From IMG/VR virus record IMGVR_UViG_3300032321_002024, positions 1-64,000 of that record: 64,000 nt of DNA; one strand, given 5' to 3'. The notes beneath the pieces are model-generated. The model was not told where the DNA came from and searched no databases. It saw nothing but the letters and a program-made list of their open reading frames with translations. Below are positions 61,763 to 64,000 of this stretch, in pieces. Source of the DNA: a virus (taxonomy: Duplodnaviria > Caudoviricetes). The translations under genes and the position numbers were made by a program. Position 1 is the first letter of the stretch; each line of letters starts with the position of its first letter.

Positions 61763-62092
61763 ATGAAATATGTAAAAACTTTTGAAAGATTTGCTTTGAA
61801 TGAAAGCCATGATATTGATTTTTCAAGACTTTGTTCTGAAGAACCAGATATGTTTCGTCTTGATTTAAGTGATGAAGGAATTGAACTTACTCGAGATCAA
61901 GAAGCTTTAGTTTCTGAATTTTCAAAGTTAGAAGAAGAATGTGTGAGAAAATCAACAAGTGGTCAATACTCCAAAGTTGTCGGGACTCCATCGTATAATA
62001 GAAGAATTGAAATACTTAAAGAATTAGGAGTTACTGATACTTCAGAATTTGAAGAAAGGTGGGCGGAGTTTGATAAACACGAAGGATTCTAA
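61763..62092 (+). CDS. Small putative virion internal protein
   Basis: MKYVKTFERFALNES; AATATATACATTATAAAAAA leader shared with 45729 and 504. Confidence 0.75.
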   Translation: MKYVKTFERFALNESHDIDFSRLCSEEPDMFRLDLSDEGIELTRDQEALVSEFSKLEEECVRKSTSGQYSKVVGTPSYNRRIEILKELGVTDTSEFEERWAEFDKHEGF

Positions 62093-62104
62093 TAAAAAAT
62101 ACTT

Positions 62105-62137
62105 AAAAAGGAGAAAATTAAACTTTCTCCTTTTTTT
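62105..62137 (+). terminator. Intrinsic terminator
   Basis: AAAAAGGAGAAA-loop-TTTCTCCTTTTTTT. Confidence 0.8.
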
Positions 62138-62268
62138 ATGCTATAAAAAATCCACCTTCGAAAAAAACGAAATTTTAAAGGTGGATATATAACATACTTT
62201 TAAGAAAAAAAATTTAAATTTTTAACAACTTTTTTATTTTTGGAACTAAAAGTTAGACTGAAAATTAC

Positions 62269-62338
62269 CCAGTAGTGAGTTAGAGAGTTACTTCGATATT
62301 TGGATTATGAAAAAACACTCTTTGACAATTTACTCTGG
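62269..62338 (+). ncRNA. Structured RNA 1 (short form), candidate TROVE-binding Y-RNA-like RNA
   Basis: CCAG-U-AG-UGA-GUUAGAGAGU-UACUUCGAU...AAC-ACUCUUUGAC-AAUUUA-CU-CUGG: the ends pair as a bulged long stem. Confidence 0.7.
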
Positions 62339-62357
62339 TCAATTATATAGGTTATAA

Positions 62358-62575
62358 GCAAACATAGCGATAGTTTGAGATACTTCGATATACAATTTCA
62401 ATTAAGATCGAAAAGTGTCTAATGGCGACAGCTGAGACTACCAAAAAACCGTAAAAGGTGAGGTGAAAAAGTCCGGATGATTCCACGTAAAGGGTTAAGT
62501 GAGATGGTCACTGCAACTATCGGCAAAGTTTCGGGAGAATTCTTTGTAACGCTCAGGCTAAATTATCTTGTTTGC
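62358..62575 (+). ncRNA. Structured RNA 2 (long form, 218 nt), candidate TROVE-binding Y-RNA-like RNA
   Basis: GCAAACA-U-AG-CGA-UAGUUUGAG-A-UACUUCGAU...AAC-G-CUCAGGCUA-AAUUAU-CU-UGUUUGC: same scaffold as RNA 1 with different, compensatory stem sequences; several internal hairpins. Confidence 0.72.
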
Positions 62576-62585
62576 AACATTATAT

Positions 62586-62626
62586 AAAAGACCAGATTTA
62601 TCTTCGGATAGTCTGGTCTTTTTTTT
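62586..62626 (+). terminator. Intrinsic terminator with C(UUCG)G loop between the RNAs and the TROVE gene
   Basis: AAAAGACCAGAT-T-TATC-TTCG-GATA-GTCTGGTCTTTTTTTT. Confidence 0.85.
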
Positions 62627-62658
62627 GTTAAAAAATTAAATAAAATAAAAATAAAGTT

Positions 62659-64000
62659 ATGTCAAAATTTAACCAAACATTACCAAAACAAAAAACACTA
62701 ACTGAAAACTTAGCTGGTGGTCAAGCTTACACTCAATCTAGTGAGTTGGCTCTTGTATCTTTGTTATTGACTTCATTTGTCAATGACCAATTTTATAGAG
62801 GTGCTAAAGATACACTCAATGATTTGAAGAAGTTGTCCGAGAAAGTTAAAGACAAAGAATTTGTCGCTAAATCTGCTATCTATGCTCGTGATAAGTTTGG
62901 AATGCGTAGTATAACTCACGCACTTGCTGGTGAATTGACTTCTCAGTTGAATGGTGTTGAGTGGGGTAAAGACTTTTACAACAAAGTTGTTGTAAGAGTA
63001 GATGACATGACTGAAATTCTTTCTTATTACTTAGCTTACAAAACTGAAAAAGACAATCCTAAGTTTCCAAACTCTTTGAAAAAAGGATTTGCAAAAGCTT
63101 TTGATAAATTTGACGGTTACCAGTTAGCTAAGTACAAAGGAGAAAACAAAGATGTTAAACTAGTTGATATTGTTAACTTAGTTCACCCTGTTCCAACAGT
63201 TAGAAATAAAGAAGCTTTAGAACTTCTTATCAAAGGTGAGTTGAAAAACACTGATACTTGGGAAGCTAAATTATCTCAAGTAGGACAACAAGCTGAATCT
63301 GAAGAAGAATTGGCTGATCTTAAGTCAAATGCTTGGTCAGAACTTATCTCCTCAAGAAAATTGGGTTATTTTGCACTTCTTAGAAACTTAAGAAACATTA
63401 TTACTCAGTCTCCTGGTTCTGTAAAGGCAGCTTGTGAAATGTTAGTTGATGAAAAATTAATTAAAAACTCACGAGTTCTTCCTTTCCGTTTTGCAACAGC
63501 TTATGATGAAATCAATAAAATTGGTTCATCTAAAGAAGTTAGAGACGTTTTGGTGGCTATTAATGGAGCACTTGAAGTTTCTATTCAAAACGTTCCAAAG
63601 TTTGATGGTGAGACTCTTGTTGTTATGGACGTTTCTGGTTCTATGATGGGTAGAGCATCTGAAATTGCTTCTCTTTTTGGAGCTGTTTTAGCAAAAGCAA
63701 ATAACTGTGATGTTATGACTTTTGCAACCGATGCTAACTACAAGTCATACAATCCTTTGGATTCTGTAATGTCTATTAGAAATAGCTTTAAATATTCAGG
63801 TGGTGGAACTAATTTCAAAGCCATTTTTACAAAAGCAAACAAAAAGTATGATAATATATTGATCCTTAGTGATTTACAAGGTTGGATTGGATACACATCA
63901 CCTACAAAGGAATTTAACGATTATAAGAAAATATTTAATTGTAACCCTCATGTGTTCTCATGGGATCTTGCTGGTTATGGGACATTGCAATTTCCAGAAA
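62659..64000 (+). CDS. TROVE-domain RNA-binding protein (Ro60/TEP1-like) with vWA domain; runs off window
   Basis: Manual translation: MSKFNQ...ENLAGGQAY...FVAKSAIYARDKFGMRS...KAFDKFDGYQLAKYK...LVHP...TWE...LGYFALLRNLRNI...SRVLPFRFATAY...VMDVSGSM (MIDAS)...GGGTNF...LSDLQ...DLAGYG. Confidence 0.93.
   Translation, partial: MSKFNQTLPKQKTLTENLAGGQAYTQSSELALVSLLLTSFVNDQFYRGAKDTLNDLKKLSEKVKDKEFVAKSAIYARDKFGMRSITHALAGELTSQLNGVEWGKDFYNKVVVRVDDMTEILSYYLAYKTEKDNPKFPNSLKKGFAKAFDKFDGYQLAKYKGENKDVKLVDIVNLVHPVPTVRNKEALELLIKGELKNTDTWEAKLSQVGQQAESEEELADLKSNAWSELISSRKLGYFALLRNLRNIITQSPGSVKAACEMLVDEKLIKNSRVLPFRFATAYDEINKIGSSKEVRDVLVAINGALEVSIQNVPKFDGETLVVMDVSGSMMGRASEIASLFGAVLAKANNCDVMTFATDANYKSYNPLDSVMSIRNSFKYSGGGTNFKAIFTKANKKYDNILILSDLQGWIGYTSPTKEFNDYKKIFNCNPHVFSWDLAGYGTLQFPE

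Follow-up and report, generated by a model that had tools for sequence, protein, structure and literature searches.

A Ro60-like gene of a giant phage is preceded by two candidate Y-type RNAs built on one modular handle

The window analysed here, the first 64 kb (64,000 nucleotides) of the 262.6-kb giant phage record IMGVR_UViG_3300032321_002024 (Duplodnaviria; Caudoviricetes), encodes a Ro60-like protein with a TROVE and a vWA domain. Directly upstream of its gene and on the same strand lie two structured RNAs, RNA 1 and RNA 2, which enclose apices of very different size in one common scaffold, here called the handle. The two RNAs are tightly linked to the TROVE gene and are therefore very probably its cognate RNAs. 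We put the probability that they are Y-RNA-type partner RNAs of the phage's Ro60 orthologue at about 85%.

Results

RNA 1 and RNA 2 share a handle

A non-coding gap of 566 nt separates a small open reading frame (ORF; 61763-62092) from the ORF starting at 62659. An earlier note on this DNA, made from the sequence alone, had described two GC-richer units of the same architecture in this gap. Sequence, coordinates and composition agree with that description, with a GC content of 34% in RNA 1 and 40% in RNA 2 compared with about 20% in the flanks. RNA 1 is a 70-nt minimal handle RNA (62269-62338, + strand) that reads CCAG-U-AG-UGA-GUUAGAGAGU-UACUUCG...AAAAAAC-ACUCUUUGAC-AAU-UUA-CU-CUGG. RNA 2 (62358-62575, + strand) is 218 nt long with the handle closing a 164-nt cargo, and reads GCAAACA-U-AG-CGA-UAGUUUGAG-A-UACUUCG...GUAACG-CUCAGGCUA-AAUUAU-CU-UGUUUGC.

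Common to both are an outer helix, a bulged U, AG/CU pairing, an asymmetric loop, a helix of 9-10 bp and an invariant UACUUCG. In RNA 1 the outer helix is formed by 62269-72/62335-38, the bulged U is at 62273, the 10-bp inner helix is at 62279-88/62317-26 and UACUUCG is at 62289-95, followed by a 21-nt apex consisting of a small hairpin and an A-run that ends in C. The matching elements of RNA 2 are found at 62358-64/62569-75, 62365, 62371-79/62552-60 (9 bp) and 62381-87, with the closing helix ending at 62575. In the window, the 9-mer TACTTCGAT is confined to two positions, 62289 and 62381, those the note had given for the invariant motif. The inner helix encloses 28 nt in RNA 1 and 172 nt in RNA 2, close to the earlier estimates of ~28 and ~170 nt. 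Both RNAs fall 84-390 nt upstream of the TROVE gene. Single-sequence folds give both scaffolds, only modestly beyond shuffles (z -2.5 for RNA 1 and z -2.2 for RNA 2).

Both structures covary in related phages

IMG/VR has 29 contigs encoding relatives of the TROVE protein with 48-89% identity, and many of these contigs belong to genomes of 300-480 kb; the 635-kb phage LR745206.1 also encodes such a relative. The gap upstream of the TROVE gene has one to three copies of (T/A)ACTTCG, mostly exactly two, in 29 out of 29 related phage loci. For the 22 RNA 1 orthologues, 91% of the cells are paired and 14 of the 19 pairs change on both sides. None of 500 shuffles reaches any of the observed measures, slid controls give 31-51%, and RNAalifold run on the same orthologues independently gives the same helices. 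A covariance model built from RNA 1 orthologues only, hereafter R1, scores RNA 1 at 90.8 bits.

In RNA 2, the RNAalifold consensus on all 20 orthologous sequences is poor because variable regions are misaligned; helix positions were therefore taken from the window sequence, and pairs were tallied for each alignment column. The handle and five cargo helices are 86% paired in the 20 orthologues, with 23 of 41 pairs changing on both sides, none of 500 shuffles reaching the observed values and slid controls at 33-47%. The closing helices are wholly different among clades with pairing intact (GCAAACA/UGUUUGC, GAGGACA/UGUCCUC and ACAAAUA/UAUUUGU). The covarying stems noted earlier from the two units of this genome are thus supported across orthologues of each RNA. 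Both are real structured RNAs, for which the comparative evidence is decisive and stronger than the single-sequence folds.

RNA 2 carries a conserved folded cargo

The 164-nt cargo (62388-62551, + strand) is a conserved folded domain and no mere spacer. Its best-supported feature is an H-type pseudoknot, in which the loop GAUGG (62503-07) of the hairpin AGUGA..UCACU (62498-62512) pairs with CUAUC (62517-21) five bases downstream of the hairpin. This pairing is kept through covariation as UAUGG/CUAUA, AAUGG/CCAUU, GAUGU/ACAUC, GAUAU/AUAUC and GAAAA/UUUUC. Also supported are the helix UACC/GGUG (62439-42/62462-65) and a long, GGGA-capped hairpin, GCAAAG..GGGA..CUUUGU (62523-47). The helices AGUCC/GGGUU and GUCU/AGAC are plausible and have no consistent support in the RNA 2 alignment. 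A blind scan for more covarying stacks in RNA 2 gained nothing reliable. In relatives, additional hairpins are inserted at fixed points of the cargo and, on direct reading, their loops can also pair downstream.

Neither the window cargo nor that of eight relatives has a match in Rfam. The stretch GAGGUGAAAAAGUCCGG resembles conserved region I of RNase P, and an RNase P-like reading of the cargo was considered and rejected: no RNase P model matches at E <=10 and a distal P4-type partner strand is missing. Read directly, AGUCC has a possible partner in GGGUU 25 nt further on, not in a distal P4 strand, and this pairing is only partly kept among relatives.

The TROVE protein belongs with Ro60

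The unannotated ORF that the earlier note had taken for a TROVE/vWA gene (62659-64000 in the window, + strand, ending at record base 64110) encodes 483 amino acids and matches Pfam TROVE PF05731 at 1.2e-20 (74.6 bits, cut-off 23). The vWA families of Pfam match weakly, below their cut-offs; the MIDAS motif (DxSxS) reads DVSGSM, as it does in phiRo60 at the aligned position, where human and Xenopus Ro60 have DVSASM. Among PDB sequences, the protein is best matched by phiRo60 of Thermus phage phiLo, along its full length (E 4e-25), with human and Xenopus Ro60 next. An AlphaFold model has a pLDDT of 78.7. The top 11 Foldseek matches listed are phiRo60, human Ro60, Deinococcus radiodurans Rsr and Xenopus Ro60, all over the full length (485-525 columns, TM 0.53-0.72), and other matches cover no more than the vWA part.

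The same note had linked the protein to the TEP1/p80 branch through sequence motifs. The comparison with that branch was made through domain content and motif alignment to Ro60 and phiRo60, and it points elsewhere. ALLRNL, R-x-x-PF and DVSxSM align residue for residue with human and Xenopus Ro60, while the FDxYQLAKY stretch (LAKYK in the query) aligns with LLKYK of phiRo60. The 483-residue protein has TROVE and vWA parts only, with no NACHT or WD40 part. The NCBIfam Rsr equivalog model NF041674 gives 16.5 bits against a cut-off of 900. By sequence and predicted structure, the protein is a Ro60-type ring of a divergent Ro60 subfamily and no Rsr equivalog.

TROVE genes are common among phages, with 101 records in the phage collection, and have been noted in jumbo phages (PMC7824862). 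In three related contigs (L025 3001-5133, also L026 and L031) the TROVE gene is split into a 156-residue N part and a 324-residue C part by an inserted ORF of 224 residues.

The handle is widespread beside one TROVE subfamily

A search with a covariance model near other TROVE genes had been proposed, and R1 found the handle in 27 of 41 bacterial or metagenome-assembled genome (MAG) contigs that encode a TROVE protein at least 35% identical to that of the window. The 39 hits all share the strand of the TROVE gene, and 38 of them are upstream of it. The contigs are labelled as Saprospiraceae and other Bacteroidota, Cyanobacteriota, Saccharibacteria, Verrucomicrobiales, Clostridium, Chloroflexi and others. 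Binning may have placed phage DNA among them. Across the 39 hits, pairing is seen in 95% of the cells and two-sided changes in 16 of 18 pairs, in an alignment that was fitted to R1. R1 also hits upstream of the TROVE gene of the crAss-like phage cr111_1. No handle was found with R1 beside six TROVE genes of the alphaproteobacterial type (~30% identity or less), nor beside those of Vibrio phage phiKT1024, phiLo and halovirus HGTV-1. The linkage of the handle to this TROVE subfamily is strict, and its presence beside one subfamily only is the pattern expected from co-evolution with that subfamily. Upstream of the 30%-identity TROVE gene of phiKT1024 there is a 350-nt non-coding gap (L052 2151-2500) with no R1 match, and it may hold a different class of Y-like RNA.

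The family-wide consensus of the handle is G-(U/C)-AG-U-GA, a helix, UUACUUC ... a helix, UUU-U-CUC (in short GUAGUGA...UUACUUC...UUUUCUC). Longer handle RNAs beside homologous TROVE genes enclose permuted modules of the YrlA type, made of a T arm, a stem-loop and a D arm (L028, L061, L090, L056 and L079), and the same handle encloses a permuted YrlA-like module in L044. Over L061 1427-1561 the alignment to the Rfam YrlA model runs end to end; the outer stem, internal loop and second stem of the model fall on the handle, and CAGUAGUGA stands opposite the YrlA consensus GGCGAAUGC, the published GNCGAA(N)G position. Handle RNAs of relatives score 32-42 bits with YrlA (RF02553; threshold 69), and none of the handle RNAs examined attains the threshold of an Rfam family. 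As all the YrlA matches are below the Rfam threshold, these RNAs form a subfamily that Rfam does not capture.

RNA 1 and RNA 2 themselves have no permuted tRNA-like module according to ARAGORN and Rfam. For the two RNAs Rfam gave only terminator-like noise, whether the whole window was scanned at the gathering threshold or the gap and eight related loci with permissive settings. Human Y1 RNA contains GUAGUGAGUUA, which was not used in the comparison. The lack of a Y RNA stem motif and a YrlA T arm, reported earlier, thus holds for RNA 1 and RNA 2; it fails for the system, as the handles of relatives enclose YrlA-type modules. The proposal of a distinct RNA class is not borne out, given that the same handle holds YrlA-type mimics and that the YrlA model aligns over the L061 handle RNA.

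Handle copies are found in phage tRNA arrays

A third copy of the handle was found with R1 in this genome at 197,820-197,936 (L041 1501-1617), about 135 kb away in a tRNA block, flush between tRNA-Thr and tRNA-Leu. Its apex is a cloverleaf in natural order that scores 51.5 bits with the Rfam tRNA model (threshold 29) and that ARAGORN calls tRNA-Ile(UAU). The UUACU of the invariant motif pairs with AGUAA to form a 5-bp acceptor-like stem stacked on the handle. Since this stem continues into the handle, the third copy has no free 3' end. Its orthologues in three related phages keep the handle with covariation, and their anticodons are UAA, UCU and UAA. Because the anticodon varies among the four orthologues while the handle covaries, the tRNA look-alike is most likely a mimic rather than a decoding tRNA, and genome annotation probably miscounts it as a tRNA.

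Phage LR745206.1 has three extra handle RNAs at 342,959, 369,033 and 388,895 (L043, L044 and L045), each 1-3 nt from flanking tRNA genes. They are a bare one of 71 nt, one of 141 nt with a permuted YrlA-like module, and a natural-order one. With so short a distance to the tRNA genes, tRNA-processing enzymes would release them. Two further relatives keep the 143-nt type. An R1 run with filters off on the tRNA-array copies lost hits of the default run, and its alignments were not used. A partial element is also present at L050 ~1945-2035 (record 186,945-187,035), where a T-arm-like hairpin and CAUCCCCGC come after the 5' half of a handle (UUGAUUGAAAGAG-UUACUUCG) and a 3' strand to match that half is missing; the element adjoins a tRNA block and is kept in two related phages (L157 and L148).

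Other elements of the locus

A promoter-like element (CAACTTTTTT ... CTAAAAG; 62226-62252, + strand) is located about 17 nt 5' of RNA 1 and may drive its transcription. Read from the sequences, TAAACTTTTT-N11-13-ATAAAAG is kept at equal distance 5' of RNA 1 in orthologous loci, and in relatives the motif reads AAACTTTT-N-ATAAAAG/T. A closely similar motif also precedes the tRNA blocks of this genome at 193,282 and 197,061. The motif thus stands before both RNA 1 and tRNA blocks, suggesting that Y-type RNAs and tRNA operons may share a class of promoter. Between RNA 2 and the TROVE start is an intrinsic terminator with a hairpin and U8 (62590-62626, + strand; fold -18.6 kcal/mol, z -6.0), and relatives have a hairpin and T-run at the equivalent position. 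The small upstream ORF (61763-62092) has its own terminator at 62105-62135.

About 75 nt 5' of the promoter-like motif is a 44-nt element (62149-62192; AATCCACCTTCG ... AAAGGTGGATATATAA) that forms an imperfect inverted repeat. Almost all related loci, distant ones among them, conserve this element in sequence but not in pairing, and it may be an operator or a second promoter. Convergent with the TROVE gene, a DUF7487 gene resembling homing endonucleases is encoded on the minus strand (L002 4097-5089; record 64,097-65,089), and the 3' ends of the two genes overlap by 14 nt. ARAGORN found no tRNA or tmRNA in the window and the next 14 kb. One RNA ligase (PF09414) is at 96.2 kb of the record, unlinked to the TROVE locus.

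Discussion

Relation to known Ro60 systems

A phage Ro60 protein with adjacent Y-like RNAs is an already published kind of system, so the claim of a candidate new ribonucleoprotein system is not supported: phiRo60 of phage phiLo binds two Y-like RNAs whose genes lie directly upstream of its own, and protein and RNAs jointly engage the host PNPase (PMC12135203). Like phiLo, the phage studied here is large, has a Ro60 ring and encodes two Y-like RNA genes directly upstream on the same strand. phiRo60 is the closest solved relative of its protein (TM 0.65-0.72), and the upstream region of phiLo has one UUUACUUCGG (L053 2306-2315). However, the two proteins are only ~26% identical. The phiLo RNAs, Yrl1 and Yrl2, are defined by a CGAA motif in an internal bulge (PMC12135203; PDB 9KOP, 9L5Y), whereas here UACUUCG is invariant and CGAA is found only in some members. 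phiLo also has no equivalent of the 164-nt cargo.

Bacterial Rsr proteins are accompanied by YrlA and the simpler YrlB, the Mycobacterium smegmatis pair being encoded upstream of the gene in one precursor, and YrlA RNAs have been reported for 22 phages (PMC4201824). The present locus resembles those of Salmonella, M. smegmatis and mycobacteriophages in having at least two Y RNAs no more than 2 kb from the Ro60 gene, one a simple hairpin and one with a large effector module. The stem-internal loop-stem layout of the handle is that of YrlA, and relatives carry permuted T-arm/D-arm modules in it. Unlike YrlA, the window RNAs have GUAGUGA in place of GNCGAA(N)G and neither a tRNA-like module nor an RF02553 match. 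The cargo of RNA 2 is a non-tRNA fold with a pseudoknot, and the tRNA look-alike of the third copy is in natural order, not permuted. The protein itself is far below the Rsr equivalog cut-off. With metazoan Ro60 and its Y RNAs the system shares the protein fold and, presumably, a layout in which an end-paired stem with a bulged nucleotide docks on the ring and a variable loop tethers factors. It differs in lacking the GGUCCGA/UUGACU helix and an Rfam Y_RNA match, and in being phage-borne and linked to tRNA arrays. As far as the searchable literature shows, the handle consensus, its breadth and the non-tRNA cargo are new, as are the sealed tRNA mimic in natural order and the occurrence of handle RNAs within tRNA arrays of phages.

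A proposed course of assembly

For the transcription, processing, binding and function of RNA 1 and RNA 2 we infer the following. The two would be made as one transcript, from the upstream phage promoter to the terminator at 62590-62626, and then be trimmed to their closed stems. Each would dock on the TROVE/vWA ring through the handle, with its outer and inner helices, bulged U, GUAGUGA/UUUUCUC asymmetric loop and UUACUUC. This part stays constant, and the apex would decide what is tethered. RNA 1 would be a bare gate-like hairpin comparable to YrlB. RNA 2 would display its 164-nt pseudoknot cargo to a host RNA-processing enzyme; an exoribonuclease is our guess, by analogy with Rsr-Y RNA-PNPase and phiRo60-Yrl-PNPase. 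The third handle RNA would display a sealed tRNA look-alike. Such particles would likely serve, during infection, to divert or weaken RNA decay in the host or activities directed at tRNAs. The terminator before the TROVE gene may control how much RNA is made relative to protein, or belong to an autoregulatory circuit.

More speculatively, the handle could be a universal adaptor by which one phage Ro60 ring is fitted with interchangeable bare hairpins, the 164-nt pseudoknot cargo or sealed tRNA look-alikes produced within the tRNA operons, the RNA 2 cargo capturing a particular factor of the host, for instance an exoribonuclease or a defence nuclease that targets tRNA. That would make it a programmable device for counter-defence or for hijacking RNA decay, an idea we regard as rather doubtful.

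Alternative explanations

Several observations weigh against RNA 1 and RNA 2 being Y-type partner RNAs. Like all Rfam models, those of YrlA and Y_RNA, which the earlier note had suggested scanning, have no match in 62100-62700 even at E 10. The GNCGAA(N)G motif is missing from the window RNAs, in which CGA(A/U) is present only within the apical UACUUCGA. R1 fails to recover RNA 2 with or without filters. We read this as a length limit of the model, as the 172-nt insert is longer than any R1 hit, and the place of RNA 2 in the family therefore rests on the directly read shared motifs and its own covariation. RtcB, to be looked for past 64,000 according to the earlier note, and a CCA-adding enzyme are both absent from the entire 262.6-kb record, which gives no pointer to a partner pathway. 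Finally, the terminator in front of the TROVE gene also fits a cis-regulatory role.

That last point is the core of an explanation in which RNA 1 and RNA 2 are a cis-acting leader of the TROVE mRNA, bound by the protein at its own 5' end, with the terminator as an autoregulatory attenuator. The terminator between RNA 2 and the start codon is strong and has the same place in relatives, and a sigma-70-type scan found no separate TROVE promoter. Handle RNAs are, however, also found far from any TROVE gene, flush between tRNAs (at 197.8 kb here and three times in LR745206.1), and in other loci tRNA genes intervene between the handle RNAs and the TROVE gene. We consider a leader very improbable; this reading is compatible with a role in trans. 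The tRNA-like modules of the copies in tRNA arrays would suit RNAs that act with another protein or alone, for example as decoys or substrates of tRNA-directed enzymes, so that adjacency to the TROVE gene would reflect co-regulation. Against this stand the 38 of 39 hits upstream of TROVE homologues on the same strand, in several assigned phyla and in phages, and their absence beside the six alphaproteobacterial-type genes searched, and we hold it to be very improbable.

Least credible of all is a TEP1/p80-branch protein with a new RNA class unrelated to Y RNAs, forming a vault- or telomerase-like particle, to which we give hardly any weight. The TROVE domain is shared with TEP1/p80 proteins, and the missing canonical GGUCCGA or GNCGAA motif and the lack of an Rfam match would fit. 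Yet of the four motifs compared, three have their counterparts in human and Xenopus Ro60 and one in phiRo60, the top 11 fold matches listed are all Ro60, Rsr or phiRo60, the NACHT and WD40 parts are missing, and the YrlA stem aligns with the handle, which in relatives holds YrlA-type modules. That the two RNAs are cognate RNAs of the Ro60 orthologue, with a constant handle and variable cargo as first proposed, is most likely given the 29 loci, the covariation and the linkage to the TROVE gene.

Implications

To our knowledge, little has been established about what Ro60 particles do in bacteria and phages, and it is chiefly a tRNA-like module that defines the bacterial Y RNAs described so far. 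The handle instead defines a widespread family beside one TROVE subfamily, in giant phages, a crAss-like phage and contigs assigned to Bacteroidota, Cyanobacteriota, Clostridium and others. Its apex is modular and may be empty, a tRNA mimic of either topology or a large non-tRNA fold, providing a natural set of cargo swaps on a single scaffold that is predicted to bind protein. A covariance model of the handle would make annotation of such RNAs possible. The copies between tRNA genes directly link Ro60 particles to phage tRNA operons.

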